Below, piece by piece: positions 25,426 to 60,197 of a stretch of DNA of 64,000 bases. The notes under the pieces were generated by a model. It saw only the letters and a list, made by a program, of their open reading frames with translations. It was not told the origin of the DNA and searched no databases. Where the stretch lies: NCBI GenBank assembly GCA_044892505.1, contig CM097882.1, forward strand, positions 451,918,001-451,982,000, in the 5' to 3' direction. A program made the translations under genes and the position numbers. Position 1 is the stretch's first letter; each line of letters starts with the position of its first letter. This DNA comes from Schmidtea nova. Lineage: Eukaryota.

Positions 25426-25805
25426 CAGTCGAATCAAATTTATTATCATGTTGGATCCACCATTTGGTCCACATTTAACATAAAAAATAATAATAAGAAG
25501 AAATAAATAGGAACAAATTAAATGAATATAATTACGAGAAATATCAGTAAAAAACGAATTAAAATGTAATAAAGACTATTAATTTAATATCAAAATTAGA
25601 AGAAAAGTAAATGGAAAATGTAAAAGTGTTAAAGAAAAATGATAGTTAATTATATTTAAATAATAAGAAAGCGAAATAAATAAGTAAAAAAAAGAAGAAG
25701 AATTAATAAAAATTCGGTAAATTAAAACAAGAAAATGAAAATCATATTTGTTAATAAAATTGATTTTATTTTTACTAGAATTGTATTGATGACCATCAGA
25801 TTGAT

Positions 25806-25850
25806 GCTGATTGGTCAATGAACTGATCTGGTCAGTATAAATACTGATCC
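25806..25850 (+). promoter_or_regulatory. LTR promoter: ATTGG (CCAAT box) + TATAAATA at 25836 (copy at 48039)
   Basis: CTGATTGGTCAAT...CAGTATAAATA(C)TGATCCA is conserved with the diverged solo LTR (57381-57426) while the surrounding sequence is not. Confidence 0.7.
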
Positions 25851-26029
25851 AGATTCAGATAATTTCAAGGTAGTTTATGTTACATTTTTTAACGTAAAGT
25901 TATATGCTCTTTTGAATCAAATTTTGCTATTGGAGGTATGCTTATTATTTTTGTTATATATATTTGTGAATTTTGTCATTGCCATTAGCTAAATAAAACT
26001 TCTTTTAAAAATATCTTATTTTTATTAAG

Positions 26030-26382
26030 CTTCTTCCACTGTGTAATCAGTGGAAGGAGATAAAGGTATTCATAGGATTTATCATAATTAAATTAAGCTT
26101 CTTCCACTGTGCAATCAGTGGAAGGAGACGACTCTATTTATATATTTATTTATCCTTTATTGAGCTTCTTCCATCGTGTAATCGGTGGAAGGAGGCAACA
26201 TTGTGTATGATATTAACAATTAGGTTGAAGAATATTTTTATAAACAATTTTTGGGTCGAGCTTCTTCCCCTGTGAAATCAGTGGAAGGAGGCGAATATAT
26301 ATATTATTTATATACAGTAGATACAGTAGAAATTACGTATGATTTAAGGGGCTCCGATCACCGTGCAATCGGTGAAATGGAG
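26030..26382 (+). other. Array of five ~12-bp-stem hairpins with TG(T/C/A)AAT hexaloop (copy at 48233-48585)
   Basis: CTTCTTCCACTG-TGYAAT-CAGTGGAAGGAG at 26030, 26098, 26165, 26261 and a variant at 26352, separated by unique AT-rich spacers. Confidence 0.85.
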
Positions 26383-26853
26383 GCATACTGTGCCGAGTAG
26401 AATGACTGCTCCGTACAGTTGGGCCGTCCGACCGGTGTATAGCGCCGTGAAGAGGGTAGGAATTTTTATTTTAACCATGATTTCTAACCTTATTTTTCAC
26501 TGGATAGTATAACCAGTTGAAGTTTTATTTTATAACCGATTTGATTTTATGAGTTTATAGTTGAGTAGAGTTTGATTTTAGTTTGAGACAGATATAGCTG
26601 CGATCTTATTAACCTGGTTTTACCTTGAGATTCACAGAGTGTTAACGTATATTTTTCGATTGTCACATCTGGGGTTTGTGGGCATAGAGCGGCAGATACA
26701 CGGTTAAGAATTTGTACAAAATACATTTTTTAAATATAACCATTTCAAAAATCGATAATTCAATAGCGTAGTGATCTACTACGCAAGTAACATAACAGCA
26801 ATAGGTTATAGGATCAAACATTCCACATAAATAATTAAATATAATTGCTTATC

Positions 26854-26989
26854 CTGAACCCTGTACATAGGGCAGTAGATCTTAGTTTATTTAACTAATT
26901 TTGTAACCTGATTGCTGTATATAGCACAGGCGTGAATAAATAAAATGTATTAAGAAATAAATGTATCTGATCGCTGTACATAGCGACAG
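26854..26989 (+). other. Array of three bulged hairpins with GTAYAT hexaloop (copy at 49057-49192)
   Basis: CTG-AA-CCCT-GTACAT-AGGG-CAG; CCTG-AT-TGCT-GTATAT-AGCA-CAGG; CTG-A-TCGCT-GTACAT-AGCGA-CAG. Confidence 0.8.
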
Positions 26990-27117
26990 TGTTGAAAGTG
27001 TAATAGGTAAATCATTTTCTTTTCCTGAATTAGCAATTAATAACTGTCAAAAGTATGAGAATCGTTCGAATCAAGACTACCAATTTCATGTTAATAAACC
27101 ATCTTGAATTTTAGAGA

Positions 27118-27711
27118 ATGTCAGCCAACACAGCAACTAATCAAGCCGAATTGGATAAAGCATGGAGGATAATTCGCAGCCTGGAAAAAGAAATGTTACG
27201 GAAATCTGAAAAATTAAAAGAAGCCGATGGCATAATCTCAAACCTGAAGAAAAGCTGGTTCAGTCCAGAGCAGATGAAAACACAAATTATAAAAAATCAA
27301 CGCTCACAGCGAGCAAACGAGGAGATCAAAATGGAATTGGACGCGACGAACATGGAACTAAAGAAATGTCTAAAATCTGTAACGGCGTCGTATTTAACTC
27401 AAGAGCTCAGCCAGCTCATTCGACCAATCACTTATCAGCATTGGGCTGACGAGAAAGCAGGATGCACAAAAGGAACGAACACCGAGGAACCATCTCAGGT
27501 TCGCGCAATAACAATAGCAGCAAGTACACCAAAGAACACGACAAATCCAGAAGGTAAAAGGAAGAAGAAGAGCAAGATGGGAGCGCGCCAGCGTCGCTGG
27601 AAGAAACAAGTTCTTCAGCAATTGGCACCGCAATCAAAAGAAATTCCCGAAATTGATCTAACTATGAACTTTGCAATATCGGATGAAGACATTACCAAAT
27701 ACTTTGAATAG
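27118..27711 (+). CDS. LTR-encoded 197-aa coiled-coil protein with an Arg/Lys-rich motif
   Basis: Intact ORF, identical in both LTRs, with a clear homologue at 59131-59727 (shared KSWF-P--MK, EL-KCL-SVTASY, IRPITYQ-W); basic motif KRKKKSKMGARQRRWKK. Confidence 0.85.
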   Translation: MSANTATNQAELDKAWRIIRSLEKEMLRKSEKLKEADGIISNLKKSWFSPEQMKTQIIKNQRSQRANEEIKMELDATNMELKKCLKSVTASYLTQELSQLIRPITYQHWADEKAGCTKGTNTEEPSQVRAITIAASTPKNTTNPEGKRKKKSKMGARQRRWKKQVLQQLAPQSKEIPEIDLTMNFAISDEDITKYFE

Positions 27712-28311
27712 GAATTCTGTGATTTAGTTATTTTCGCGTATTAAATAATTTTTGTTTTGTATTTATTTTATCGTAAAGTATATGAAATAGAGTGATTTAT
27801 TAAAAATTTAAAATAATTTAAAGGAAAATATAAATTAAATTAACTATACATTAGAATTAACAATAAGATTAACATAAATCTAATAAACAATAGAAACATT
27901 AAAGAGATAATATATTGTAATTGACTAAAGATTATTTGTTGATATTGTAAAGAAGGGGGCTGAAAGAAAAGTTGAAAGTTGAAATATATTGTAAAGAAAA
28001 GGGGGCTAAAGAAACATTGAAATGAAAGATAATGGATGCGGATAGATTAAAGTAAAAGCGTAAGTCCTTCTATCGGCAGCGAGACGAACCCGTGAACATA
28101 AATGGGGAGTAGTTTTAGCAATAGAGCTCACCTGCCCATCATTGTTCAAACACCTTGCACATTTCCAACTCGATTATTACAGGGAAATGATCGAGGGTGC
28201 TCGTGTGATATGTAAGCATTTTATGTGAGGTTTTGGATGGAGGAATCCCTAGAGCGTTTAGTTTAATTTTCTAATTTTGTTTTAACCCAATCCAGACCGA
28301 CAACATAAATT

Positions 28312-28329
28312 TGGAGGCTCAGCCGGGAT
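28312..28329 (+). promoter_or_regulatory. Primer-binding site TGGAGGCTCAGCCGGGAT (most similar to a tRNA-Pro 3' end)
   Basis: Starts TGG 6 nt after the LTR; resembles the animal tRNA-Pro PBS pattern TGGGGGCTCRWCCGGGAT. The tRNA identity is an inference. Confidence 0.75.
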
Positions 28330-29167: not shown

Positions 29168-29214
29168 TAAATAAATGATGAATTTAGTAATATTATTCGT
29201 AATAAATAAAATAT

Positions 29215-29400
29215 GAGAAAGGATAATGAGAATTAATATGATAATTCATAATGAGAATTAATATGAGAATTCGTAATAAGAATTAATAGGATAATTCATA
29301 ATGAGAATTAATATGAGAATTCGTAATAAGAATTAATATGAGAATTCATAATGAGAATTAATATGATAATTGATAATGAGAATTAATAATGAGAATTTAA
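29215..29400. repeat. Degenerate GAGAATTAATATGA(G/T)AATTC tandem repeat
   Basis: Seen directly; several imperfect units. Confidence 0.7.
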
Positions 29401-29871
29401 AATGAGAGTTGATAAAGGCAATGACAGAAATCATGATAGCAATTGATATTTATAAATAATTTTTGAGCTGCTCACGAGTAGTCCGTTAAGCACCCATTGG
29501 GAGGAACCAACTGATCAACTTACCCGAGATATATAGAAAGGGGCCCATCGCGGAAATTGGAAAGCTTTTGTGATGTGACTGATCACCACATCTTGCATTA
29601 GTAGACCAATGCGATCTTTTTGTATGTTTTGGTTGGGGTGAAAGGTAGGGACAATCTAATGAGGTTTAAGTGCATGCAGAAAATACAAATAAAAAAGAGA
29701 GAATAGAACACTGATCAGTGAAAGTCGAAAGAACATTAAGTAAATAAGTAGAATGAAAGTTAATGTGATAACTCTCATAACAATAGAGATAATTCAGCTG
29801 AATGATAACTAGCGAAGTGGATAATTGCGGTTAACCGGTTAAAGAGATTAGTTAAATACCTTGTATAAAAA

Positions 29872-30577
29872 GGGCAAATAAGCCATATTAGTTACTCTGA
29901 AAGAAGGGTCAAGGGCAAATAAGCCATATTAGTTACTCTGAAAGAAGGGTCAAGGGCAAATAAGCCATATTAGTTACTCTGAAAGAAGGGTCAAGGGCAA
30001 ATAAGCCAGATTAGTTACTCTGAAAGAAGGGTCAAGGGCAAATAAGCCATATTAGTTACTCTGAAAGAAGGGTCAAGGGCAAATAAGCCATATTAGTTAC
30101 TCTGAAAGAAGGGTCAAGGGCAAATAAGCCATATTAGTTACTCTGAAAGAAGGGTCAAGGGCAAATAAGCCATATTAGTTACTCTGAAAGAAGGGTCAAG
30201 GGCAAATAAGCCATATTAGTTACTCTGAAAGAAGGGTCAAGGGCAAATAAGCCATATTAGTTACTCTGAAAGAAGGGTCAAGGGCAAATAAGCCATATTA
30301 GTTACTCTGAAAGAAGGGTCAAGGGCAAATAAGCCATATTAGTTACTCTGAAAGAAGGGTCAAAGGCAAATAAGCCATATTAGTTACTCTGAAAGAAGGG
30401 TCAAGGGCAAATAAGCCATATTAATTACTCTGAAAGAAGGGTCAAGGGCAAATAAGCCATATTAGTTACTCTGAAAGAAGGGTCAAGGGCCAACAAGCCG
30501 TATTAGTTAATTACTCTGAAAGAAGGGTCAAGGGCCAACGAGCCATATTAGTTAATTACTCTGAAAGAAGGGTCAAC
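29872..30577. repeat. 41-bp tandem array (GGGCAAATAAGCCATATTAGTTACTCTGAAAGAAGGGTCAA), 15 near-perfect + 2 variant copies
   Basis: Exact 41-bp period from 29872 to 30487. Confidence 0.95.
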
Positions 30578-30579
30578 GG

Positions 30580-30800
30580 CAACATAAGAATTTGAACCTA
30601 TGATTGCAATAGTGATAGCAACACAAGGAATGTGAACCTGTGATTGCGATTGTGGATAGCAACACAAGGAATGTGAACCTGTGATTGCGATTATGGATAG
30701 CAACATAAGGAATATGAACCTATAGTTGTAATTGTTGAAATTTAGTAAATTTAGCAACCTAAGGAATTTGAACCCAGGTTTGCAATTGTGTGAAATTAAA
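30580..30800. repeat. Second degenerate array with 41-bp period (AAGGAATGTGAACCTGTGATTGCGATTGTGGATAGCAACAC)
   Basis: AAGGAAT recurs at 30625, 30666 and 30707. Confidence 0.75.
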
Positions 30801-31419
30801 TGACAACGAAAGGAATATGAACCTAGAGTTGAAGTCGTCGACGAAGTGAGAATAGTGAGCATTAGAGTTTGAGTAATACGAGTAAAGATGATTAAGTAAA
30901 CTAGAGATACAGTATGCATACAAGTAGAAATAAGAATAGGAGAAATTAGAGTTGACTAGAAATAGTGAGAATAATGAGTAATGATGATACCATGAATAGT
31001 GATAAAATGATAATTGAGTCAGGAGAACTCAAGGGAATTAAAGCGTTTGAGCGACAAATTAAATTGGGAGATTGAGGGAAAAGTAATGAATTTATTTGAT
31101 AACGATAGATAATTATTACGACCATATAGATAATTGTTACCAGTGAATAGATAATTTAAATAGACTTAAATAAAGGGGAAACCGGGAATGGGGAAACAAT
31201 GGAAACCCAATAATGAGGAATAAAAGCGCAACGATAACAATGATGTATCGTTGAAGTGACTTTTTAATTTAGATATACGGAACAGAACAAGTCAAAACAA
31301 CCAACCAATCAATCAGAATACGATAACAGAGAAACAGAAAAATTGATAAATTAAAGAAAAGTAAACCGAGATCAAGAGCAGTTAAAAATCAAGAAGTTAA
31401 TAATTCACAAAGAAATAAA

Positions 31420-34400
31420 TTGAGATCAAGAGCAGTTAGTGCTACAATCGAAAAAGTTGATAATTCACAGAGAAATAAATCGAAACAAAGAGCAACCAGT
31501 GCTACAAAGAAAACAAATCCTAAAGGAAGTAAATCAAGAAGAGTAATAGTAGAAAAGTCAAAAATCGAAAACAGTAAATTAACAAAAACTAACGAAAGTG
31601 AAACAGAAGAAAGTTCAAGTGAAACCTACGATAATTATAATAATACGGAAGCATCAGATAACGAGTCAATAAACACAGAAGAAGTAGAAGCAGAAATTGA
31701 TAATAATTCAAACGAAACGAATAACGAGCATACTAGTGAAACAAGAGGAAACGAGAGTAAAACGACACAAGACAGCGGAATTGAAATGAACGAGCATAAA
31801 GAAGAAATCAAAGATAAATTTACTGGAGAACCATTCAATGGAGATGCCAGCAAGTTGGAAACGTTTTTAAAAGAATTTGGTATATTTGTAGAAGTATGTA
31901 AATGGAAACCAGAAACGATAAGGAGCAGAATTCAGTTATATTTAAAAGACAGTGCGTTAGACTTATATTTAGAAGCTAAAAATTCAGATGATCAACTTGA
32001 TAGTTGGGAAAAGATAAAGAATTTTTTCCAGCAAACGTTTGGAATAAATAAAGTATTAAATGAAGCATTTACAGAATTTTCAATGAGGAAACAAAAAGTT
32101 AATGAATCAAATGCAGTATATGCAAGTGAATTAAAGAAATTGGCTAAATTAGCATTTAATCAAAATAGTCCAATGAGTTCAGAATTAATGGCAGCAATTT
32201 TTGTGGGGGGATTGAGAAGACCCGATATAAGAGCACAAGTTGGATGCCAAGGTTGTAAAACAATAGATGAAGCGTTGGAAATCGCTAACAGATTTGAATT
32301 ACATATGATCGGAAGTGAAGGAAGAATTTACCTAGCAATGGATACGACACAAAATGAACAAGCAATGAAGATAAACAATCATATCCCGAATTCACAACAA
32401 TTAAACCGACCACCACCTCAAAGGAGAAATGAGGGAAACAAAGTACAAAATTTCGGAAACCAAAATAATTATAATACGCAAGGACAGACAAAGCAATGTC
32501 AAACCTGTGGAAAGTTAGGACATTGGCAACAAGAATGTTTCGTGAACTTAAATTGTAAAACGTGTGGAAGAAAAGGACATTCGGAAAATAGATGTTACCA
32601 AAGATCATGTTATAACTGTGGACAACCAGGTCATATGGCAAAGAATTGCCAACAACAAAACAACCAGCTAAGGAATTGGTCGAACAACGGAAATCGACAA
32701 AATTATGCGAATCAACAGAATAACGGAAACCGTCAGAGTTATGGAAATCAACAGAGTAATTATAACCAGAATAAAAGTACCACCAAAGAAATACATTTAT
32801 TACAAGAAGTTCAGAGATTGACAGAGTTAATAAATAATACACCGAGAGGAAATCAACAAACGAATCAACAACAAATGAATATGATGAGAAAAGTAGAAAG
32901 TGAAAACGAACGACTAAATCGAGAAAGTCAAGCACGACATGCTCAAGAATGGGCAAGAATACAAAGAGAAGACGAACAGAAACGACAAGAAAGAGAACGA
33001 CAACCATTGAGAATTAATATGATGAGAGCAACGAATCAAACAAGAGATAACAAAGAAGATATTGAACCAGAAACAAACCGGATAAACCCAAATCCGGAAG
33101 ATGAAGAAAACCAAAAAGAAATAGTACAAGAAAACGAAGAAGTTATTAAACAAAAAAGGATGTTGGTAGTCATGCCAAACGATCATGTATTTCGATTTGA
33201 ATATGATGAAAAAGAGGAAGTAGGAGTATTAATTAATAAAGTAAACAAGACGATTCCGGGAATGACGAAACTACCCCGAGAAGCAATTTTACAGACAGAA
33301 GACGAAGCAGCAATAAAATTGAAACCAACCGACATATGGAAAGATTTAGGAGTACCAATGAATAAAATGAAAGTCACAGTTATCCAGGAAATAGAAGAAA
33401 ATAACGATGAAGAGAAATCAAAACCAGTAACAAAAGTCAAAAGTAGAGCATTGAAGATATTTGAAGAGAGAATCAAACAGAGAAAAGCAATGGAGATAGA
33501 AAAACGAAGAGGCCAAATAGAAGAATCAGGAACCAATGACAAAAAGGAAGGAATACCACAAAAAAATGTACCAGATAAAGTAGAACAGACAGCACTCATT
33601 AATATGTTAAGAAACTTAACTAGAGAATTTTCAGATGTAGAAAGTGACAGTGATGTCAGTAGTTTAGCAGGAGATATGCTAAAAGAACCAGAAAATGAAG
33701 ACAACAAGATAGAAGTAGCGAAGACGCCAGAAAATATACAAATAAAAGAAGATGAAATTCAGAAACTATTAGATAATGCGTTAGAAGTGATTTATAACGA
33801 AGAATTTATTGATAAGAAGCGATATCGAAAATTTATAAGAGCAGTATTCCGAACGAACTATAAAGAACGGTTACAAAGTCGTGAATTAGAGATATTATCA
33901 GGATACGTCGTCAAACTATTAGAAGAACCACTCCACGAATACATAATTTTAATAGAAATAAACGAATGTTCACCAAGAATTTGGATCAAATCTCCATGCA
34001 CGAATGAAATTTATCGATGGGTAGAAGACAGATTGGGAAGTTCGTATAAAAACAAATTTATATATTCAGGAAACGAACTTGTAAGACGAGCAACGCATTT
34101 GGTAGAAACAGGCATATGGCCAGGAGAGATAAAAACATTATCAATATGCGACAATAAGAAAGAGGAGAATTTACAAGAAATTGCAAAGGAAGCAAATATG
34201 TGTTTTGAGATGAGAATTAAACCTCAGTTAGTAGAAAGGAAAGAAAGAATTCTTAGAGAAAATTTAAATTCACTAATAGAACAAATTATTCAACAAATCG
34301 ACAAGAATAGAGAAGAATTAACAAAAACTGAATATGAGAAATTAAAACAATGCATCGAAAATATACGAGATACCAGCCATACGAGACATTCGTCATACAA

Positions 34401-37400
34401 GACTTGGAAAGTGATCGCGAAAATGGGAAAAGCGATGTTTAAACGAGGAGAAATAGGAGATTTGAAAATCAAAGTGAAATTACCAAACGAGGACACAAAA
34501 GAAATTGAAGTAATCGCGGATTGCACAATAGAAGAATTAGTTGATGTTATCAATGAGACTTTATTACAACGGGAAAAAGAAGACGAATTAGAAGACGATA
34601 TCATCATGAAATATAATGAACACGTGCTAGGAGATCATGATGAGAGACGATTATATAAAATTGGCATATGGGATAATTACCAAACAATTCATGTTATCAG
34701 AATGGATGATACACCAAGAGAAACACCAAAAGATGAAAAAAGGAGACAAGAACGTCGAAGAGAAGAGATGCACAAACTAAGACAAATAATAGAAATTTAT
34801 CGAAGATGGCAGATACAGCCAGAATGGGAAAATGTTTTAGGAGAATTAAACTTCAACGAACGCCGATTAATACCAGTAGAGAAACACTGGGAGGTTAAAG
34901 AGAAATGCTGGAAAGCAAAAGGAGGTATATATGAAGAGGAATTTAGACCAGAAATGGAAGACAAATATGAACCAGAAATTAGAAGAGTTTGTATGGTGAC
35001 AAGAAAAGTCATGCCAACAGATTTAGATGGACCAGAAACCGCAGCAATATGGTTAGAAACGCAAAAACGAAAAGCTGACGAACTTATTGAATTACTAAAA
35101 GGAAACGTACAAGGAAAAAGGCGAACGATCAAAGGATTAGCCGAATTCTTTGTAGCAGGCGGCGAAGATATAATCAGTTTAAGAAAAGTAGCCAAGGTAG
35201 TAACAGAATATAAACGAGTTAACGAGTGGTGCCCAGAACAATTAGACAATGTAATCAAGAAATGGAGAAACCAAGAAAACTCCCAAGAACCACCGCAGAA
35301 AATACATTTAAGGATAATATATCCAGATCGAGAAAAAGAAGAACTTTGGGTAAGATTAACCGAAAAGATTCGAGATGTTAAAAAGAGATTAAAATATGAA
35401 CCACCATTTCATCTACAACATCAAGGACGATCACTAGAAAACGATATGGAAATTTGGATAACGCCAGCACAGTTAGAACTGGCAAATACGTTAACAGTAG
35501 ACGCAATAGCAGGTCAACCATTAAAACTTAAAGAGAAAAGAATAAAAGAAAGTGGAGATACTCAGAATCTAAGGAAGACGATGCAGATAAAACCAGGAAC
35601 AAGCGCAAGGCAGTACGAAACAACATCAATTAAAATCCAAGAAAGAACTCGACCACAACCATACGATACAGAAGAAATCTTAACAGACAGTGATGACATG
35701 CTAGAAGAATTAGCAAAATTGACAAAAGAAAAAGGCAATAATATTTTCGAAAGAGTACAAGAGTTACCTACAACATCACAAGCAATCAATACCCAAGATG
35801 AAGTTGAGCAAGAAATAGAGATAGAAGAAGTGAACGAAATCTCTGAAGAAGAAGCAAGAGGAGCAAATACAGAAAAGGAACGATTAACACAAGAAATGGA
35901 AAAATGGTGGGAACAGAGAAATAATGAACCAAGAGATGTTACAGAGGAAACTGGACGAGAAACCAGATTGATTGAAGCAGGTACAACAATGGATAGACGA
36001 CCTAGAGGTAGACCAAAGACTGATCCAGCCAACATAATCAACAAAACTAAAGAGGAAAGGAGACAAGAGAAATGGGAATTATGTTTAAAGAAACTCAACA
36101 AAATAGCAGAAGCAAAAGACCAGGAAATAACGCAAAAATGTCAAGGTGAAGGATGGATATCAAAAACACTAATGGAAATATTGGCGATAATTGATCCAGA
36201 ATTGAAAAAATGGTGGAGAATAAACGAAATAAGCGACAAGGCTAAAGCATTACATAGCGCAATCGCACCAATCTTACCCGAACTGATAAAAGAGAAGACA
36301 AAATCAAGCCATTTAGATTGGCAAGGGACCACAACGTTGATAAAGAGGTTAACTGAAGATGCAGAAAACGATAATAAATATGTGATAGCAATTGCGTATA
36401 CAATTTATAACTTATTAACATTGAGTAGAGGTAATCCAAAATCTATGGCAATAGAGAAACATATCAAAAATACGGCAGGCATCATAGCAAAAGAAATAGA
36501 ACCATACGTCATCAGTAAAGGAGGATGGGAAACATTTGTTAAAACGAATCAAAGAAACAGTCAAGCAAAGAATATGAAAAAGAAATTTGAAGAAATTTTA
36601 GGAGAATTAGAAAAAGAAAAGTCAGGAACAGGAGGTGGAAAACCTTCACTAAACCTGAATTCAATCATAATGATGATATTAATATGGCTAATTAGCGTTG
36701 AAGGAGCAACGGCGTTCGAAGTATTTGATTGCGACCAGATGGCATTAGGAGAAAAATATTCATTAAGAGGAACCGAACAATGCAAAGATGCAACTCCAAC
36801 AGAGCTAAAAGTACTACATAGTAAACAAATATATCACGTATATCAGGAAGCCGACTTAATAAAGACAACAGTTAATGAATGTAAAATATATAAAACAAGA
36901 TTTGCTTTTTATTGTGGACATCGCCACTACTCTGCAATCGTAATGCCAGGAACGGAAAGGGAAGCGATAATGTTACAAGGAGAAGATTGCAATAAATTGT
37001 TCAAACATGGAGAAGTCGAAACAAGAGATCGAATAAAGATAAGAGGAAAAGCTGGAGTAATACTACAACAAACATATTATGTAGCAGGAGCTATCACAGG
37101 AGGAGAAGGTTACTGTCAAGGAGCAACATATCCAATATTTGGAGTACCAGCAACTAACCTGGTAGTAATCGACACATACACGGTAGAATTAAAAGCGTAT
37201 GAAGCATATTTTGACCCAGCTACAGGAGAAATGAAGACGTTATCAATGTGCAAAATTGAAGCCAGTACTTGTCAAACCGGTATGTCAACTTTAACATACA
37301 GAGCAAAAGCAAATGAATGCCAATTACAATTATTAAAGGAAGCGGAGTTCGACGAGGTACAAGGAAAAATCTTTCAGGAAGAATATGATGATGAAGTAGC

Positions 37401-40400
37401 AAGAGGAAAACGTCTACAGGAGACAGTAAAAGGAGAGAAACCGTTCACAACTAAAGTACAAGAAAAAGAGGTGAGGATGAGGGAGACGCCAACAGTATTG
37501 GTTACATCAAACGCAAATATAGGAATGAGGTTTGTAAAAGGAAAACCGACATTAAAATGTGGTGTTTCTATGTTAGAAACGAATTACCCAGGTATTTATG
37601 TATCAAGACAAGCAGCACCAAATGCAAAACCCAAGGTAGATACTACAGACATCAAATTACACGTATATTTAAATAACAAATTGGATTTTTTATTTCACAA
37701 AGGCCAAGCATCAATGGAGAAAATATACTACGATCTCATTAACAGCGACTGTATATTGAACAGAGAAATATTAAAGACGAAATTAGCAGTAGCAATTACA
37801 AACCCGGATAGTGCTATGCCATTATTACCACTTAACGAAGGTCATTTTGGAAGAGTAGTTGGAGAAGTTATGTACGTATATATATGTCGAAAGACACAGG
37901 CAAACGTAGCAACAACGACCAGAATACGACAAGGACAATGTACCAATGAATTGGAAATTGAATATAAAGGGAAAATAAGATATGTACAACCAGTGACAAG
38001 GATCATTAATCCGGTCAGTTTTGAACCAAACCCTTTCAATTGCAGTAACGCATACGGACCACTATATCAGAAACCAGACGGAAATTGGGTCATGTTTCCG
38101 TCAAAATCAGAAGTACAACCACCTAGAGAATTTGAATTGATGCAACTTTCAAAAGGACGAAAATTTTCCAATATAGATGTAAATAATGGAGGAATTTACA
38201 GTGCAAAAGATCTCGAAGCAGCACGACAAAATATATTATTTCCAGCTAGGAGAGAAGCAGTATTATCTAGCATCGTAACGATAACAGGAGGAACAAGTTA
38301 TCAAGGAGGACCAAATTATGAATTATTACTGTCACCAGCACACTTTAGGAAAGCAACAGAAAATATGATGAAAGCAATGTGGGGACGATTTTTAATTTTC
38401 GGACAAATGATGGCCGGAATACTAGGTGTAATTTTAATCATACAAATAATACGAGTGATAATCACACAAATGCTAGCATGCTTTGATATTTATAAAAGAG
38501 AAAAGAAAGTTAATTGGAAATTAATAGCAGGATTTTTACCATTTTTAGCAAAAACGATGGTGTTACATGGTCACTCCAAAGATATTCACAGAATAAAACG
38601 ATTATTAAAAATACTGGCAAAAATGAAAGGAACGGATGAAGACGTGGGAAGAAAATTCAAAAAGATAATGACAGATGAACAAGCGAGACTACAATTAAAA
38701 AGAGAAAGAAAAGGATTATGGGAAAGAATAAGAGGAGATAAAACTCAAGATGATTCCAGTGATGACGATGATAACAATGACGACTGCGAAGGAGGGCAAA
38801 GGTACAGAAACCAAGCACCGCAATATAGCGACAAGAATCCAGCAGAAGCATGGAAATGTCACGCACCTCCACCAACAATGTACCAAGAACCATTACAGGT
38901 ATCAGGACACAGAGCAATGCAAATGATGCCAATGACAACTTTATATCCAATTATACCAGAAGATTATAAACTTAGACGATGTAGAAGTATGGATCCGCAA
39001 GACGATTCACTCACAATTGCAGTCATGACATCAAATATAGGACCAGTATTAACTACAACTATAGAAATAAATGGAAAAGAAATAGAAGCGATGATAGATA
39101 CAGGAGCAAATATTTCGGCGATAGATATCAAATGGATACCGCAAGAACAGAGACAAGAAATCGAAAGAACAAATGTTCATGTAATCGCATGTAGCAAAGA
39201 GATAGTTGAAGTTGCAGGAAGATGGTGGATAAAAATACGACACCAAAATATAGAAATCGAAACGTATGTAGCAGTAATACCAGCTTTAAGCGTACCATGT
39301 ATAATCGGAACAGATTTAATGCCAACACTATTTAAAGAAATAATCATCGATCTTGGAACAATGAGATTAAAGGACAGAACAGGGAAAATATGTGCTATGG
39401 AAGCAAAAGTAATAAACTCGAAACAAATAATGATACCGGAAGAAAGAATCATGACGAGATCACAAACAGTCAGAATAAATATGCTCAGAGCAGAGGAAAT
39501 TAACACAACTAGTCAAGTAGAAAGTGAGAAAATCGATGTTGACAAAGAAATCGTACGAAAAGCCAAAGAAATAAACGAAAGATGGGAAATCAGACAAGAA
39601 AAAGACGTATTATGGGATATACGACAAATAATTAGTGATTACGCACGAGGATGCCCAACCAAACCAATCATAATAGAATTACTAAAGAAAATACCAGAGA
39701 TACTCGTATTACAAGATACAGGAAGTGCAACTGCACTACACAATGCCATAAGTTGGGGTAAAACGGAAAAAGTAAAAGAATTTTTGAAAATAGCAAAAGA
39801 AACGAATCAAAATCTAGACATTGTAAATCGAGAATTAGAAACGCCAATGATGACAGCAACACTAAGCTTAGCAGATAAAGAAATAGTAGATATGCTGATC
39901 AACGCAGAATTCAACTGGACAGCTCGTGATAGAAGAGGAAACACAGTTTTAAACCATGCAATAATGAGTGAAAATCAAATGATACTAAAACATATAACAA
40001 CCAACCTCACATGGGAAATCGATGAATTAATCAAAGGAGAAATTATGAAGGAAGCGATTCGGAAAGGAAACACTAAAACCATATGGAAACTAATACAATG
40101 GAAATGGCCGAATAATAAAACATGGGTATTAGATATAAACAAAGAATTTAGCGAAGGACAGAACGCGCTATTGAGATACTTATTAGAGTTTACGTGCGAT
40201 CAGAGAACAATGTTAGCACTAATAAATAGAGGAAAAATAAATATTAGTAAAAACGAAGAGGAATATAAACTAGAAGTCGAAAAGAAAGCGTTATTCAGGA
40301 AAATTTGGATATGGTGTCAAAAACAACTACGCAAAGACATAAGCTACAAAAATCTAAATGATTTCCAAGAAAAGTATAAAACGATAATAAAGGAATACAA

Positions 40401-40656
40401 GAAGCTAGTGGAGATATTAAACGATCCAGAAAAATTTAATCAAGCAATAAATCAGAAAGAAGAAGAAAGTAAAAGGATACTCACACCATTGTTCAACGCG
40501 AAGCTAGATTACCAAGAAAGATTAGATGCAATACACAAAAAAGCAAAGGAACTATTACCAGAATTCAAAAATACTAAATACGCCTTGGAAATACTTGGCG
40601 CGATAGTAGAAAAGTACACGCGTACGCGAAAGGAATATATAATGGAAACGACATAA
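31420..40656 (+). CDS. 3078-aa polyprotein: Gag - 3x CCHC - ubiquitin-like domains - AT-hook - Bcl-2-like - signal/TM - chuvirus-type fusion glycoprotein - TM - retropepsin - ankyrin repeats; true start uncertain
   Basis: Gag FNGDASKLETFLKEF..QLYLKDSALD; CQTCGKLGHWQQEC, CKTCGRKGHSENRC, CYNCGQPGHMAKNC; RRPRGRPK; EPYVISKGGWETFV; VEGATA|FEVFDC; FGQMMAGILGVILII; AMIDTGANISAI..IIGTDLM; TALHNAISWG, RGNTVLNHAI. The frame is open from 31327, but the first ATG is about 120 codons in. Confidence 0.92.
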   Translation: MRSRAVSATIEKVDNSQRNKSKQRATSATKKTNPKGSKSRRVIVEKSKIENSKLTKTNESETEESSSETYDNYNNTEASDNESINTEEVEAEIDNNSNETNNEHTSETRGNESKTTQDSGIEMNEHKEEIKDKFTGEPFNGDASKLETFLKEFGIFVEVCKWKPETIRSRIQLYLKDSALDLYLEAKNSDDQLDSWEKIKNFFQQTFGINKVLNEAFTEFSMRKQKVNESNAVYASELKKLAKLAFNQNSPMSSELMAAIFVGGLRRPDIRAQVGCQGCKTIDEALEIANRFELHMIGSEGRIYLAMDTTQNEQAMKINNHIPNSQQLNRPPPQRRNEGNKVQNFGNQNNYNTQGQTKQCQTCGKLGHWQQECFVNLNCKTCGRKGHSENRCYQRSCYNCGQPGHMAKNCQQQNNQLRNWSNNGNRQNYANQQNNGNRQSYGNQQSNYNQNKSTTKEIHLLQEVQRLTELINNTPRGNQQTNQQQMNMMRKVESENERLNRESQARHAQEWARIQREDEQKRQERERQPLRINMMRATNQTRDNKEDIEPETNRINPNPEDEENQKEIVQENEEVIKQKRMLVVMPNDHVFRFEYDEKEEVGVLINKVNKTIPGMTKLPREAILQTEDEAAIKLKPTDIWKDLGVPMNKMKVTVIQEIEENNDEEKSKPVTKVKSRALKIFEERIKQRKAMEIEKRRGQIEESGTNDKKEGIPQKNVPDKVEQTALINMLRNLTREFSDVESDSDVSSLAGDMLKEPENEDNKIEVAKTPENIQIKEDEIQKLLDNALEVIYNEEFIDKKRYRKFIRAVFRTNYKERLQSRELEILSGYVVKLLEEPLHEYIILIEINECSPRIWIKSPCTNEIYRWVEDRLGSSYKNKFIYSGNELVRRATHLVETGIWPGEIKTLSICDNKKEENLQEIAKEANMCFEMRIKPQLVERKERILRENLNSLIEQIIQQIDKNREELTKTEYEKLKQCIENIRDTSHTRHSSYKTWKVIAKMGKAMFKRGEIGDLKIKVKLPNEDTKEIEVIADCTIEELVDVINETLLQREKEDELEDDIIMKYNEHVLGDHDERRLYKIGIWDNYQTIHVIRMDDTPRETPKDEKRRQERRREEMHKLRQIIEIYRRWQIQPEWENVLGELNFNERRLIPVEKHWEVKEKCWKAKGGIYEEEFRPEMEDKYEPEIRRVCMVTRKVMPTDLDGPETAAIWLETQKRKADELIELLKGNVQGKRRTIKGLAEFFVAGGEDIISLRKVAKVVTEYKRVNEWCPEQLDNVIKKWRNQENSQEPPQKIHLRIIYPDREKEELWVRLTEKIRDVKKRLKYEPPFHLQHQGRSLENDMEIWITPAQLELANTLTVDAIAGQPLKLKEKRIKESGDTQNLRKTMQIKPGTSARQYETTSIKIQERTRPQPYDTEEILTDSDDMLEELAKLTKEKGNNIFERVQELPTTSQAINTQDEVEQEIEIEEVNEISEEEARGANTEKERLTQEMEKWWEQRNNEPRDVTEETGRETRLIEAGTTMDRRPRGRPKTDPANIINKTKEERRQEKWELCLKKLNKIAEAKDQEITQKCQGEGWISKTLMEILAIIDPELKKWWRINEISDKAKALHSAIAPILPELIKEKTKSSHLDWQGTTTLIKRLTEDAENDNKYVIAIAYTIYNLLTLSRGNPKSMAIEKHIKNTAGIIAKEIEPYVISKGGWETFVKTNQRNSQAKNMKKKFEEILGELEKEKSGTGGGKPSLNLNSIIMMILIWLISVEGATAFEVFDCDQMALGEKYSLRGTEQCKDATPTELKVLHSKQIYHVYQEADLIKTTVNECKIYKTRFAFYCGHRHYSAIVMPGTEREAIMLQGEDCNKLFKHGEVETRDRIKIRGKAGVILQQTYYVAGAITGGEGYCQGATYPIFGVPATNLVVIDTYTVELKAYEAYFDPATGEMKTLSMCKIEASTCQTGMSTLTYRAKANECQLQLLKEAEFDEVQGKIFQEEYDDEVARGKRLQETVKGEKPFTTKVQEKEVRMRETPTVLVTSNANIGMRFVKGKPTLKCGVSMLETNYPGIYVSRQAAPNAKPKVDTTDIKLHVYLNNKLDFLFHKGQASMEKIYYDLINSDCILNREILKTKLAVAITNPDSAMPLLPLNEGHFGRVVGEVMYVYICRKTQANVATTTRIRQGQCTNELEIEYKGKIRYVQPVTRIINPVSFEPNPFNCSNAYGPLYQKPDGNWVMFPSKSEVQPPREFELMQLSKGRKFSNIDVNNGGIYSAKDLEAARQNILFPARREAVLSSIVTITGGTSYQGGPNYELLLSPAHFRKATENMMKAMWGRFLIFGQMMAGILGVILIIQIIRVIITQMLACFDIYKREKKVNWKLIAGFLPFLAKTMVLHGHSKDIHRIKRLLKILAKMKGTDEDVGRKFKKIMTDEQARLQLKRERKGLWERIRGDKTQDDSSDDDDNNDDCEGGQRYRNQAPQYSDKNPAEAWKCHAPPPTMYQEPLQVSGHRAMQMMPMTTLYPIIPEDYKLRRCRSMDPQDDSLTIAVMTSNIGPVLTTTIEINGKEIEAMIDTGANISAIDIKWIPQEQRQEIERTNVHVIACSKEIVEVAGRWWIKIRHQNIEIETYVAVIPALSVPCIIGTDLMPTLFKEIIIDLGTMRLKDRTGKICAMEAKVINSKQIMIPEERIMTRSQTVRINMLRAEEINTTSQVESEKIDVDKEIVRKAKEINERWEIRQEKDVLWDIRQIISDYARGCPTKPIIIELLKKIPEILVLQDTGSATALHNAISWGKTEKVKEFLKIAKETNQNLDIVNRELETPMMTATLSLADKEIVDMLINAEFNWTARDRRGNTVLNHAIMSENQMILKHITTNLTWEIDELIKGEIMKEAIRKGNTKTIWKLIQWKWPNNKTWVLDINKEFSEGQNALLRYLLEFTCDQRTMLALINRGKINISKNEEEYKLEVEKKALFRKIWIWCQKQLRKDISYKNLNDFQEKYKTIIKEYKKLVEILNDPEKFNQAINQKEEESKRILTPLFNAKLDYQERLDAIHKKAKELLPEFKNTKYALEILGAIVEKYTRTRKEYIMETT

Positions 40657-47648: not shown

Positions 47649-50508
47649 TGTTGGATCCACCATTTGGTCCACATTTAACATAAAAAATAATAATAATAAT
47701 AAGAAATAAATAGGAACAAATTAAATGAATATAATTACGAGAAATATCAGTAAAAAACGAATTAAAATGTAATAAAGACTATTAATTTAATATCAAAATT
47801 AGAAGAAAAGTAAATGGAAAATGTAAAAGTGTTAAAGAAAAATGATAGTTAATTATATTTAAATAATAAGAAAGCGAAATAAATAAGTAAAAAAAAGAAG
47901 AAGAATTAATAAAAATTCGGTAAATTAAAACAAGAAAATGAAAATCATATTTGTTAATAAAATTGATTTTATTTTTACTAGAATTGTATTGATGACCATC
48001 AGATTGATGCTGATTGGTCAATGAACTGATCTGGTCAGTATAAATACTGATCCAGATTCAGATAATTTCAAGGTAGTTTATGTTACATTTTTTAACGTAA
48101 AGTTATATGCTCTTTTGAATCAAATTTTGCTATTGGAGGTATGCTTATTATTTTTGTTATATATATTTGTGAATTTTGTCATTGCCATTAGCTAAATAAA
48201 ACTTCTTTTAAAAATATCTTATTTTTATTAAGCTTCTTCCACTGTGTAATCAGTGGAAGGAGATAAAGGTATTCATAGGATTTATCATAATTAAATTAAG
48301 CTTCTTCCACTGTGCAATCAGTGGAAGGAGACGACTCTATTTATATATTTATTTATCCTTTATTGAGCTTCTTCCATCGTGTAATCGGTGGAAGGAGGCA
48401 ACATTGTGTATGATATTAACAATTAGGTTGAAGAATATTTTTATAAACAATTTTTGGGTCGAGCTTCTTCCCCTGTGAAATCAGTGGAAGGAGGCGAATA
48501 TATATATTATTTATATACAGTAGATACAGTAGAAATTACGTATGATTTAAGGGGCTCCGATCACCGTGCAATCGGTGAAATGGAGGCATACTGTGCCGAG
48601 TAGAATGACTGCTCCGTACAGTTGGGCCGTCCGACCGGTGTATAGCGCCGTGAAGAGGGTAGGAATTTTTATTTTAACCATGATTTCTAACCTTATTTTT
48701 CACTGGATAGTATAACCAGTTGAAGTTTTATTTTATAACCGATTTGATTTTATGAGTTTATAGTTGAGTAGAGTTTGATTTTAGTTTGAGACAGATATAG
48801 CTGCGATCTTATTAACCTGGTTTTACCTTGAGATTCACAGAGTGTTAACGTATATTTTTCGATTGTCACATCTGGGGTTTGTGGGCATAGAGCGGCAGAT
48901 ACACGGTTAAGAATTTGTACAAAATACATTTTTTAAATATAACCATTTCAAAAATCGATAATTCAATAGCGTAGTGATCTACTACGCAAGTAACATAACA
49001 GCAATAGGTTATAGGATCAAACATTCCACATAAATAATTAAATATAATTGCTTATCCTGAACCCTGTACATAGGGCAGTAGATCTTAGTTTATTTAACTA
49101 ATTTTGTAACCTGATTGCTGTATATAGCACAGGCGTGAATAAATAAAATGTATTAAGAAATAAATGTATCTGATCGCTGTACATAGCGACAGTGTTGAAA
49201 GTGTAATAGGTAAATCATTTTCTTTTCCTGAATTAGCAATTAATAACTGTCAAAAGTATGAGAATCGTTCGAATCAAGACTACCAATTTCATGTTAATAA
49301 ACCATCTTGAATTTTAGAGAATGTCAGCCAACACAGCAACTAATCAAGCCGAATTGGATAAAGCATGGAGGATAATTCGCAGCCTGGAAAAAGAAATGTT
49401 ACGGAAATCTGAAAAATTAAAAGAAGCCGATGGCATAATCTCAAACCTGAAGAAAAGCTGGTTCAGTCCAGAGCAGATGAAAACACAAATTATAAAAAAT
49501 CAACGCTCACAGCGAGCAAACGAGGAGATCAAAATGGAATTGGACGCGACGAACATGGAACTAAAGAAATGTCTAAAATCTGTAACGGCGTCGTATTTAA
49601 CTCAAGAGCTCAGCCAGCTCATTCGACCAATCACTTATCAGCATTGGGCTGACGAGAAAGCAGGATGCACAAAAGGAACGAACACCGAGGAACCATCTCA
49701 GGTTCGCGCAATAACAATAGCAGCAAGTACACCAAAGAACACGACAAATCCAGAAGGTAAAAGGAAGAAGAAGAGCAAGATGGGAGCGCGCCAGCGTCGC
49801 TGGAAGAAACAAGTTCTTCAGCAATTGGCACCGCAATCAAAAGAAATTCCCGAAATTGATCTAACTATGAACTTTGCAATATCGGATGAAGACATTACCA
49901 AATACTTTGAATAGGAATTCTGTGATTTAGTTATTTTCGCGTATTAAATAATTTTTGTTTTGTATTTATTTTATCGTAAAGTATATGAAATAGAGTGATT
50001 TATTAAAAATTTAAAATAATTTAAAGGAAAATATAAATTAAATTAACTATACATTAGAATTAACAATAAGATTAACATAAATCTAATAAACAATAGAAAC
50101 ATTAAAGAGATAATATATTGTAATTGACTAAAGATTATTTGTTGATATTGTAAAGAAGGGGGCTGAAAGAAAAGTTGAAAGTTGAAATATATTGTAAAGA
50201 AAAGGGGGCTAAAGAAACATTGAAATGAAAGATAATGGATGCGGATAGATTAAAGTAAAAGCGTAAGTCCTTCTATCGGCAGCGAGACGAACCCGTGAAC
50301 ATAAATGGGGAGTAGTTTTAGCAATAGAGCTCACCTGCCCATCATTGTTCAAACACCTTGCACATTTCCAACTCGATTATTACAGGGAAATGATCGAGGG
50401 TGCTCGTGTGATATGTAAGCATTTTATGTGAGGTTTTGGATGGAGGAATCCCTAGAGCGTTTAGTTTAATTTTCTAATTTTGTTTTAACCCAATCCAGAC
50501 CGACAACA
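47649..50508 (+). repeat. 3' LTR (2860 bp)
   Basis: Same sequence at offset 22200/22203; the encoded proteins are identical. Confidence 0.95.
49321..49914 (+). CDS. 3' LTR copy of the 197-aa LTR protein
   Basis: Identical translation to 27118-27711. Confidence 0.85.
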   Translation: MSANTATNQAELDKAWRIIRSLEKEMLRKSEKLKEADGIISNLKKSWFSPEQMKTQIIKNQRSQRANEEIKMELDATNMELKKCLKSVTASYLTQELSQLIRPITYQHWADEKAGCTKGTNTEEPSQVRAITIAASTPKNTTNPEGKRKKKSKMGARQRRWKKQVLQQLAPQSKEIPEIDLTMNFAISDEDITKYFE

Positions 50509-51560: not shown

Positions 51561-51633
51561 ATAATAATAATAATTATTATTATTATCAATAATTCTCATA
51601 ATGATGACTATAGATCAAAATTTTTTTTTAAAC

Positions 51634-51675
51634 AATACCACAATATTTCGGCACAGCCTTTATCAAGTGTGTATT
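51634..51675 (-). ncRNA. Inverted copy of the pLTR hammerhead ribozyme
   Basis: Reverse complement of 54501-54542. Confidence 0.65.
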
Positions 51676-56851: not shown

Positions 56852-58138
56852 TGTGTATTAATTAATTTTTTATGTGTTTTTGTTATTAAATTTGTTTTTT
56901 TTTGGTGTTTCCTGTTGATAATTTAAATTCACTTCGATCCGCTACGATTAAACAAGACTTGATTAGGTTTAGTTTTTGCCCAATAATGCTATTCAAAATA
57001 TATTTTTTGGAAAATGAAGGGGGTAGATGTTAGTGTTGGGCCCGCCAAATCACCTAAAATCACAATAAAAGAACGAAAGCATGAAACAATAAGGAAATAA
57101 TAAACATAAAAATAACAATAAAAACAAATTAAAAATAAGAATAAAATGACAAATAATATTTGATAAGTTTCCAGCAAAAGGAAATTTTGAAAATAAGCCG
57201 GTAAACAACAGCAAAGGGGGGCCTGAAATAAAAAAAGATAGAATTAAATAAACTAATAGTACAAATAATTAATTAATTACTCGAAAAATCAGGACCACCC
57301 AGCGAGAAACCGGAAAAGGAAACAAAATAATATTTAGGTTTAAATAAAATAACAAAAATACTTTGATGGACGGTCTGATCCTGATTGGTCAATCCAACCA
57401 GACGGATCAGTATAAATACCGATCCAAAAACCACAACTTAACTTTTTCACTAAAACTTAACTGTTAGATAAAATCTTTACAAAACGCACTTTGTACTAGA
57501 ACTATTACCAGAAACGATTTTCGAGGAACAGTCTTAATTTTCAAATCCGAAGAAACATTCAAGTACGGAACGTAACATTTTAATTTTGTTTTATTATTGT
57601 ATATTGATGTTAATGTACCCATGATTTTTCATCCATTATAATTTTACGAAACTTTTATTTTTCTTCTATCTTAATTTAACCATGCATATAGTTATACTTC
57701 CTAGGCTGCTCACGCGGCGAGGGAGTCCGAGTCGTCGTTGTGGGGCCTCACGGTCTCACATGGTGGTTCAACCTTTTTAGTATTCATTTTAGATTTAGAA
57801 TTTTATTTGATAATATGACTGAATTTTGATCTAATCCAGACAATTTACTAATGATAATTAAATTATTTAATTCTGGGTTGCACAGAGGATGAGTGTCGAG
57901 GGCTAAATAGTGAAAATGCGGAGAGCAGCTTGATAATGGGGAACACCCAAGGGGAGGGTGTACTCAGCATCATAACGCGTAGTAAAATGAGCCGAAACTG
58001 AACCTCCAGCATGGAGAACAGTGACAAACAAAAAGAATTAATTCAAATAATTTCGATAGAATGGAAAATTTCAATCATGATTAAAGTCCGATTTCATTCG
58101 GAACTAGCACCTCACATACATAGTCACAAGATCGATAA

Positions 58139-58355
58139 ATTCCGATCGCATTAGAATGCGACGGAAAATCCAAATCAAATCAAGAGAATCTAAAAATAGA
58201 CCGATCGTCGTACATGGCGCGGATCACCTAATTTATCTTCCGATCGCTGTATATAGCGCGGAGAATTTTTGAATAAATTTTAGGCTTCCTGAATGCTGTA
58301 CATAGCACAGGACTAATTATGAATTCCTTATTTCCGACCGTGGTAGATCACGGCG
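58139..58355 (+). other. Five bulged hairpins, four with GTAnAT loop, in the solo LTR
   Basis: CCG-AT-CGTC-GTACAT-GGCG-CGG (58201), TCCG-AT-CGCT-GTATAT-AGCG-CGGA (58239), TCCTG-AA-TGCT-GTACAT-AGCA-CAGGA (58287), CCGTG-GTAGAT-CACGG (58338), TCCG-A-TCGCA-TTAGAA-TGCGA-CGGA (about 58141). Confidence 0.8.
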
Positions 58356-58475
58356 AGACAAATAAATATAATCATATTTTAGACCAATTTTTGTTGTTTT
58401 ACGTGGTATCAGTAAATCATCCTACAAATTTTCCTCCGATAAACTCTATGTTTTATATTCGATAACCTAATACAG

Positions 58476-58955
58476 ATGTCGACAGCTGAGATTATGGACA
58501 AATTGACCCAAATGCGGAATTTGGAACAAGGAAGTGCAGAGAATGGAACGGTCTCTCAACTCAAGGAGCTACCTGCACCGATATTGCGGACCCTCAACGC
58601 TCAAATGTACAAGTGGAGACACGGGTTCGGTCGAAAATGCCCGTTTTCCATATGGGCTGGAGGAAGCGATCAGGTACTCTACCGGGGAGGACCGAATTGG
58701 CCAATTTCCCAAAGGCCTTACTCGAACAAATTTGGACAAATAATCGTGGTGATAAAGGACGCAGAAGGACGATCGAGTCGAATAATTTATTGGGGACATA
58801 TCCCTCGCCGAGAGTTATGCCAATTGGGACTACAAGCGTTTCTACCGCGGAAACCGTTTGGCAAGGAATGTCAGAAGGGACAACCCCCATTTTCTTGGGC
58901 TCGACTGCGGCGGATGCTGATCAACAACGAACTACACTGCCTATTTCGGCGATAA
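58476..58955 (+). CDS. 159-aa ORF of unknown function inside the solo LTR
   Basis: GC-elevated intact ORF with ATG directly after CAG; no motif recognised; no counterpart in the 2.86-kb LTR. Confidence 0.45.
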   Translation: MSTAEIMDKLTQMRNLEQGSAENGTVSQLKELPAPILRTLNAQMYKWRHGFGRKCPFSIWAGGSDQVLYRGGPNWPISQRPYSNKFGQIIVVIKDAEGRSSRIIYWGHIPRRELCQLGLQAFLPRKPFGKECQKGQPPFSWARLRRMLINNELHCLFRR

Positions 58956-59130
58956 AATTTTATAACAATGATAATTATAAATAAAAATCTTATTGTTTCT
59001 CAATGGTCTTGGTTTTGAATTTCTGAATTATTAAATCTATCATGTTCTCGATTAAAAAATCATTTACTCATATTGAAATTTTAAGCATTTTTTAAAGCGA
59101 CAAAGGCAATTATTTTAAATCAATTATAGA

Positions 59131-59727
59131 ATGAATACCGATCTGGCACAAAGAGAGTTGGAAAAGATGTGGCGAATCCGGAGAGCCCAGGACAAGGAAT
59201 TGGGTCTCCTCAAAGCACAATTATCCAAAGCCGAGGCGCAAGTCACCTATTTGCGCAAAAGCTGGTTCGCTCCGGCCCGGATGAAGGAGCAAATCAGTAA
59301 AACCGAACGTGCCCAGCAAACCGCAGCCGATTATAAACTGGAATGGGAAGCTACCAAAATAGAGCTTCGGAAATGCCTCCATTCAGTGACTGCCTCTTAT
59401 ATCGAAAGGGAGTTACGAGATCAAATCCGACCGATCACATACCAAGAATGGACGGCGGAAAAGAAAAGCGTCAACTCGATTGGCACGGACGTCGACGATC
59501 TCTTGGAAGACCGAAACAAGCCAGTTCCAGCAATAAATCCATCCACTTCAACTGCAAATGCGCACCAGAAACGCAAGCGCATCGGGCAGAAACGGCGAAG
59601 GCAAAGAAAACTATTCGCGCAACGATTGCAGAATCAAGTAGACGGCCTGCACAAAATGACAGAAGAGGAATTATTAGCAGAAATATTTCCCCCAGCCGGA
59701 GTTTTCACCGAATTAATTAAAGATTAA
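59131..59727 (+). CDS. 198-aa LTR-encoded coiled-coil/Arg-rich protein (homologue of 27118-27711)
   Basis: Aligns without gaps over the first ~110 aa; basic motif QKRKRIGQKRRRQRK. Confidence 0.85.
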   Translation: MNTDLAQRELEKMWRIRRAQDKELGLLKAQLSKAEAQVTYLRKSWFAPARMKEQISKTERAQQTAADYKLEWEATKIELRKCLHSVTASYIERELRDQIRPITYQEWTAEKKSVNSIGTDVDDLLEDRNKPVPAINPSTSTANAHQKRKRIGQKRRRQRKLFAQRLQNQVDGLHKMTEEELLAEIFPPAGVFTELIKD

Positions 59728-60197
59728 ATAAATTCTCGTATTATCGTCAAATTTTTGTTGTTTACCTAAATTAGTTTAGTTAATGGAATAAATAATAATA
59801 TACCTGTGATATAAAAAATATAACTTTACAATACAAAACACCTAAGACAGGCAAATAAATAATTAAAGGAGCACTCGGATAACAAACTTCATGCAGAATA
59901 AGTGATGTTAAAGACAAATTTTCTGAAAGTTTATTGTGGAGTACCTAAGTAGATGATTAAAGCGTAAGTCCTTCTAACGGCAGCAATGAACCCGTAAACA
60001 TAAATGGGGAGTAGTACTAGCGATAGTGCTCACCTGCCCATCATTGTTTAACCACCCTGCGCATCACCAACTTGATTATATAGGGAAATAATCAAGGGCG
60101 CTTGAGTGTATAATTGCAATTTTATGTATGATCATGGATGAGGGATCCCTAGCCATTGTTAGAGCATTTTTCATCTAACCCCTCCATGAACCCAGCA

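Follow-up and report, generated by a model that had tools for sequence, protein, structure and literature searches.

A possible Rev-like switch in the LTRs of a giant planarian retroelement: a small gene with structured RNA in its intron

Does an invertebrate long terminal repeat (LTR) encode both a regulatory protein and the RNA that this protein reads? The question is raised by positions 26854–27711 of the window, the whole 64,000-nucleotide (nt) stretch of Schmidtea nova DNA analysed here, in which the first-pass annotation proposed a Tat/Rev/Rex-like system made of bulged RNA hairpins and an adjacent arginine-rich protein. What stands of that proposal is the RNA structure, + strand transcription and a selected protein with a basic helix; the Tat/TAR half falls, as the hairpin array lies about 1 kb from the promoter and in an intron. 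The Rev/Rex half gains support from a spliced mRNA and from structures confined to the intron.

Host element and its LTRs

The region 26854–27711 sits within the 5′ LTR of a 25-kb clade-A element, whose two LTRs are 99.86% identical in alignment and whose outer ends are both bordered by the same 4 bases (Table 1). This is a Burro-type giant LTR element, with a gag–env–protease polyprotein, ankyrin, TRAF and RING cargo and long LTRs. Pfam assigns the fusion glycoprotein of the polyprotein to the Monjiviricetes type and identifies RING and TRAF ORFs flanking the polyprotein ORF. The giant gypsy-like Burro/GYPSM1 elements of planarians have in common with it a polyprotein with gag and, in frame ahead of the protease, a mononegavirus-like env, as well as ankyrin repeats, TRAF and RING cargo and multi-kb LTRs (PMC6431247, in part); the window's copy differs from them in lacking reverse transcriptase (RT), RNase H and integrase. 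Pfam finds none of the three in the polyprotein of this copy, and finds them at the corresponding place in both of the two longer relatives examined. The RT–RNase H–integrase segment is cleanly missing from 31786–40656, and env, protease and ankyrin remain in frame. Equal 22.2-kb spacing in many clade-A LTR pairs suggests an amplified non-autonomous subfamily. The Burro section of PMC6431247 makes no mention of an LTR gene, intron or hairpins, and our literature search found no description of them for Burro, although Grohme 2018 and Lee 2026 (Dev Cell) may contain one.

Relatives of the protein encoded in the LTR, of which each of three genome searches returned at least 150 scored, fall into clades A, B and C and a distant clade D. 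The terminal LTR block is 81% identical between clades A and B, and clade D has a homologous block without the donor word. These 250 nt are highly conserved, offer several possible stems and have no match in Rfam; they could be a priming domain, a packaging domain or a second donor.

Several further features of the window and of related copies were recorded. Tandem arrays of 25-nt and 41-nt units lie between the RING ORF and gag, at 29185–29413 and 29706–30661. Within 31260–31790, an open frame of 153 codons that lacks an ATG lies upstream of gag and in frame with it, and an acceptor-like TTTTTAATTTAG stands near 31270; gag may start from a spliced exon. At 51603–54575, 460-nt inverted repeats flank a 338-amino-acid (aa) ORF, whose C-terminal stretch we take to be GIY-YIG-like, together with an 826-nt duplication; we read the whole as a Penelope-like fragment. 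An intron-less ORF for a host-type TGF-beta type I receptor kinase (60861–62522) follows the solo LTR by 660 nt. Several solo LTRs elsewhere (L217, L277 and L278 ends) are inserted in (TA)n, (TG)n or (TTA)n microsatellites.

Table 1 Features of the window, with positions counted from its first nucleotide
Feature	Position	Strand	Details
5′ LTR, clade A, Burro-type element	25449..28305	+	TG...CA ends; 4-bp target duplication
CCAAT box and TATA box, predicted promoter	25809..25843	+	joint pattern: 1,390 genome matches, control 0
Intron 1 of LTR gene	25936..27114	+	GT donor 25936; AG acceptor 27113–27114
Type I block	26030..26460	+	repeated 12-bp hairpins, UGNAAU loop; two further stems
Bulged hairpin 1, type II	26854..26875	+	loop GUACAU
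Bulged hairpin 2, type II	26908..26929	+	loop GUAUAU; absent from 280-nt equilibrium fold
Bulged hairpin 3, type II	26967..26989	+	2x1 internal loop; loop GUACAU
197-aa ORF	27118..27711	+	two long helices, IRPxTYxxW, disordered linker, basic helix, acidic tail
Basic motif, residues 147–164	27556..27609	+	G155, R159 and R160 kept in at least 90% of 23 proteins
Terminal LTR block	28055..28305	+	starts with consensus donor-like GTAAGT in clades A–C
Primer-binding-site-like 18-mer	28312..28329	+	from sequence; starts TGG
Polyprotein ORF	31786..40656	+	gag, zinc knuckles, fusion glycoprotein, protease, ankyrin (Pfam)
3′ LTR	47649..50508	+	hairpins at 49057, 49111 and 49170; ORF 49321–49914
Solo LTR, clade B	57034..60197	+	TG...CA ends, 4-bp duplication; hairpins at 58201, 58240 and 58289; 159-aa ORF; 198-aa homologue 59131–59727

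The LTR gene and its structured intron

We infer a transcription start near 25865. Of 23 clade-A LTRs, 20 keep a splice donor 83–125 nt downstream of the TATA box, and clades B and D have counterparts; a donor guessed at 25870 was rejected as not conserved. At the other end of the intron, YAG stands 1–4 nt before the ATG in 22 of 22 clade-A and 23 of 25 clade-B copies; in clade D it immediately precedes the aligned start in 25 of 30. A genome search for TATA boxes close to the ORF start uncovered two LTRs, L277 and L278, that precisely lack intron 1: exon 1 runs straight into the acceptor, and the two edges of the gap coincide with the predicted AG/GT and AG sites. They belong to different subfamilies and have intact 5′ parts and terminal blocks, with all hairpins gone. 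These copies indicate that the RNA is spliced, that the hairpins are carried on + strand RNA and that they are removed from the mRNA of the ORF. On the simplest reading the copies arose by reverse transcription of spliced RNA; they leave the start site unmapped, as splicing of the 3′ LTR portion would give the same result. Genome searches found no intron-less copies in clades B and D. A joint at the predicted intron was not seen among the joints listed for four contig sets of unknown kind, which is uninformative either way.

AATAAA occurs at the ORF stop in 28 of 35 clade-B and 8 of 25 clade-A loci, and an LTR-only mRNA with poly(A) after the ORF is plausible from this arrangement. The element also contains numerous additional ORFs, several of them closely preceded by an AG, and so must handle both spliced and unspliced RNA. 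A CATGA-like word recurs 40–60 nt behind the donor in clades A, B and D (L122, L136, L260 and others); it stands amid diverged U-rich sequence and is weak in the window's own copy.

Intron 1 contains two sets of predicted RNA structures. The first, which we call type I, is a donor-proximal block with two or three stems about 100–200 nt behind the donor in every clade (A–D), and its first hairpin in the window folds at −19.6 kcal/mol (z −6.4). Paired cells number 797 of 837 in clade A, 424 of 439 in clade B and 354 of 360 in clade D, with 7 of 31, 3 of 22 and 1 of 30 pairs double-sided, respectively, in structures derived from the same alignments on which pairing was counted; clade C was judged by eye. 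The block differs in sequence between clades, as does the basic motif of the protein, a pattern that co-evolution could produce but that does not demonstrate it, as kin share both. We regard the block as a candidate reading target that appears as good as the second set.

The second set, type II, is the array that was originally annotated. Its bulged repeats are indeed present in both LTR families, with 9 exact matches on the + strand of the window, none on the − strand and none in 200 shuffles of the window, and all the stem sequences quoted earlier were found. A sequence frame without any pairing rule has 4,147 matches in the genome against 47 for a reversed control; among the 100 matches listed, 92 are LTR-type, 86 of these being fully paired, and 8 are unrelated. 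A conserved ORF motif matches the genome 1,140 times (control 0), and from the 100 of these matches that were listed we hand-picked 60 loci for diversity. The frame is present in 51 of the 60, giving 120 hairpins, in which 471 of 480 upper-stem cells pair (459 Watson–Crick and 12 G–U, the others being 4 A–C and 5 of other kinds). Loop and bulge are both kept, the loop more broadly than the GUAYAU claimed, which fits 87 of 120 hairpins against 113 for GUANAU, and the bulge as AU in 104 and AA in 14, with AC, outside the claimed A(A/T), in 2; the search frame fixed the outer stem, the first bulge base and the loop, so that their constancy is partly built in. One additional 3′ base occurs in 37 of the 120.

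Covariation across LTR copies, which had been named as a test of the proposal, was assessed on 25 of the 41 distinct variants, all of 22 nt, the 16 with the extra base being excluded. Pairing among these 25 reaches 96%, compared with 84.5% in shuffled alignments and 14–50% in slid controls, five of seven pairs vary on both sides, bearing out the compensated stem changes first described, and covariation is 0.436 compared with 0.219 in the shuffled alignments, none of 500 of which reaches the observed value; these statistics ignore phylogeny, and related copies share stem changes, so the independent events are few. Single type II hairpins are modestly stable (z 0.06 to −1.94), and in the predicted fold one more G–U pair forms, reducing the loop to 4 nt. 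Each LTR has 1–4 hairpins by the frame used, spaced mostly 38–67 nt apart, which fits what a multi-site platform would need. Rfam returned one chance match only (E 0.17). Two candidates were rejected. The repeat in L190 and L208, suspected of being a fifth hairpin family, is an unrelated coding sequence whose match to the frame is due to chance and which does not pair; a kissing-loop dimer signal was discarded because the fourth loop base is free.

Judging from these alignments, we take the type II hairpins to be real, covarying RNA structure. New here is their predicted placement, about 1 kb behind the TATA box and between a conserved donor and an acceptor just before the ORF. They do lie downstream of the TATA box, as first described, but 820–1,179 nt away (22 of 23 clade-A LTRs measured).

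The LTR protein and its relation to the hairpins

The clade-A protein is 35% identical to the 198-aa clade-B homologue. Values of pN/pS are 0.16/0.71 in clade A, 0.22/0.76 in clade B and 0.13/0.70 in clade D, for chosen intact copies and with pS near saturation. The basic motif has a pN of 0.034, 0.10 and 0.07 in the same clades, against 0.29, 0.52 and 0.27 for the linker. By these measures the 197-aa ORF is under purifying selection, its predicted basic helix especially. The motif reported in the first-pass annotation exists, but "arginine-rich" does not describe the window's protein, which has 7 Lys and 4 Arg; the second family (clade B) has 6 Arg and 4 Lys, and in an alignment of 23 proteins at 20–85% identity the motif is Lys-rich in clade A and Arg-rich in clades B and D. 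A motif richer in Lys than Arg, as in the window, could be a plain nuclear localisation signal.

The predicted structure (pTM 0.30) has helices at 3–47 and 50–100, a disordered linker and a helix at 153–173. No homologue was found in a word search of 5.8 billion proteins, among 1.84 billion representatives or among PDB sequences, and this pTM 0.30 model as query has no fold match among viral folds at E ≤ 0.001. Pfam REV scores one of the 23 members, in a clade-D basic region, at 20.1 bits against a cut-off of 22, and two of the 23 have comparably weak bZIP basic-region scores; such sub-threshold scores likely reflect composition. Inspection by eye revealed no clear leucine-rich export signal, the acidic hydrophobic tail having no consensus common to the clades.

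Residues 118–123 (27469–27486), just after the helices, read KGTNTE in clade A and MGVQTE in clade D, presumably resembling the binding motif of dynein light chain LC8. The 159-aa second ORF of the clade-B LTR (58476–58955) is conserved across copies, has its own acceptor directly before the ATG and has no match in Pfam; clade D has an unrelated-looking ORF at its place. An apparent tandem paralogue in L184 and L211 was rejected, as it is a clade-C LTR just behind the clade-D ORF, read as a nested insertion.

Are the protein and the hairpins a dedicated pair? In clade D, promoter, donor, acceptor, ORF and terminal block are all present, and 13 of 20 clade-D loci have their own structured block in the same intron; the GUANAU hairpin occurs at none of the 20 in the 4.5 kb upstream examined. 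Clades A and B have identical hairpins and differ in half of the basic motif. Both the clade-D protein without the hairpin and the common hairpins of A and B with differing motifs count against a dedicated pair. ORF-less LTRs are rare (6 loci plus L217), which counts against a freely trans-acting factor; no amplified ORF-less family was found, and L217 and L285 share a junction, so that an ORF-less lineage moved at least once. Specific binding of the GUANAU array by the LTR protein seems rather unlikely on this comparison, and Gag or a host protein as reader are live alternatives. The structure is real and the gene is real; the protein is a candidate partner.

Readings of the unit

We propose, with a probability of roughly 45%, that the product of the LTR gene is a Rev-like regulator, which would act on unspliced RNA by way of the intron's RNA structures. 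The proposal starts from the layout, the covariation, the selection on the protein and the exact intron loss in two genomic copies. A fully spliced LTR-only mRNA would be made first and exported normally. Its protein would enter the nucleus through the basic helix, oligomerise through the long helices and bind structures present only in intron-retaining RNA; once bound, it might block splicing, promote read-through of the poly(A) signal that follows the ORF, or export genomic RNA. A fuller version is more tentative: a Rev/RRE-type switch inside an invertebrate LTR, in which a new protein family from the LTR's spliced mRNA would bind the GUANAU array or the block and license unspliced genomic RNA, with solo LTRs as stand-alone regulator genes.

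HIV Rev/RRE, HTLV Rex/RexRE and MMTV Rem/RmRE likewise combine a small basic regulator from a spliced mRNA with a structured cis element, which for Rex and Rem lies in or overlaps the LTR (PMC12789967, in part). In the LTR gene, two precise intron-less copies and conserved splice sites point to a spliced mRNA, and predicted covarying structures lie between donor and acceptor, on intron-retaining RNA. Unlike Rev, Rex and Rem, to which it has no sequence homology above the cut-off, the LTR protein has no clear export signal, and the candidate hairpins stand as small separate units where those systems have a single branched element. An invertebrate Rev-like protein is already known: CERV, of the C. 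elegans gypsy element Cer1, is a novel protein from a spliced mRNA and is needed for export of unspliced RNA (PMC10309623, in part). With three domains and a Cys loop, CERV is large and lacks any recognised RNA-binding motif, and the available part of that text (PMC10309623) never uses the term "response element"; the gene described here, by contrast, is small, lies inside the LTR, encodes a basic helix and neighbours candidate RNA elements. MMTV sag and HIV nef are also protein-coding ORFs inside LTRs, but lie in U3 (PMC12789967, in part), whereas the ORF here follows the LTR's conserved promoter and has its own first exon, so that a solo LTR would be a complete gene.

The Rev-like reading is favoured because the shortest spliced transcript would encode a small, selected protein with a basic helix, as such a switch needs, and because CERV shows that gypsy elements do this (PMC10309623, in part). 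Counting against it are the modest stability of the hairpins, with hairpin 2 unformed in context, the Lys-richer motif, the missing export signal, a REV score in only 1 of 23 members, and intron-less copies that number only two, with none in clades B and D. Structures confined to an intron that the regulator's mRNA loses follow Rev/RRE logic, and equally the logic of a packaging signal.

Retroviral packaging signals are stem-loops behind the first donor that mark unspliced RNA; Gag binds them, and encapsidation depends on them. The hairpins may be such a signal for the zinc knuckles of Gag, marking only unspliced RNA, with a separate nuclear role for the LTR protein. Their position behind the first donor suits packaging as it suits Rev, Gag has CCHC knuckles (Pfam), and protein and array are uncoupled in clade D; intron-less LTRs number two, both singletons, compared with 652 matches for an ORF-start motif that overlaps, and the ORF-less junction, by contrast, is found at two loci (L217, L285). 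However, the primer site lies far downstream of the array, both LTRs carry the array, its loops are not self-complementary at the variable base and so would form no kissing dimer, and it shows no link to Gag. We consider packaging an unlikely function.

A host RNA-binding protein, such as Pumilio (element UGUANAUA) or, as for a constitutive transport element, an export factor, might read the loops here, with the basic motif as no more than a localisation signal. The Pumilio motif UGUANAUA (as defined in PMC7617650, in part) extends across the loop and closing pair in 105 of 120 hairpins, with a free base at the matching place, and identical hairpins in clades with different basic motifs suit a host reader. 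Against Pumilio, the closing U–A has become C–G or G–C in 9 of 148 hairpins (8 clade-B loci), which keeps the stem and destroys the 8-mer; the stems are under selection, unneeded by a single-strand reader; and the site is intronic. A host reader is improbable on this balance.

TAR lies at the very 5′ end of the RNA, and Tat has a Cys-rich activation domain. The hairpins, in tandem copies in a transcribed part of the LTR and near a basic protein, share the topology of TAR (stem, 5′ bulge, 4-bp stem, hexaloop), but TAR is in the R region (PMC12789967, in part), whereas they lie about 1 kb in and within an intron, which excludes TAR-like action at the promoter, and the protein alignment has no Cys cluster or Cys-rich domain, so that a Tat-like elongation activator is highly improbable. 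Similarly improbable is a role of the repeats as duplex DNA targets of a dimeric factor, which might be the LTR protein itself acting as a DNA-binding activator: the repeats are quasi-palindromic and 2 of 23 members have weak bZIP-basic scores, but the asymmetric bulge, the free stem sequence with kept pairing and the excess of G–U over A–C (12 versus 4) point to a folded single strand, and the helices precede the basic region rather than come after it.

Export of intron-containing RNA by gypsy-type elements with many spliced genes has been shown for CERV, for which the available part of the text reports no RNA element (PMC10309623). In S. nova, a single 1.9-kb unit brings together a candidate protein with two RNA structures that are short and well delimited, and animals of this kind are tractable by RNAi, which makes the question directly testable. 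Burro elements are reported to affect planarian stem cells (PMC13465017, in part, citing Lee 2026). With Gag as the reader, the hairpins would instead constitute a packaging signal of Burro elements; if the Rev-like switch is true, it would represent an independent origin of complex-retrovirus regulation.
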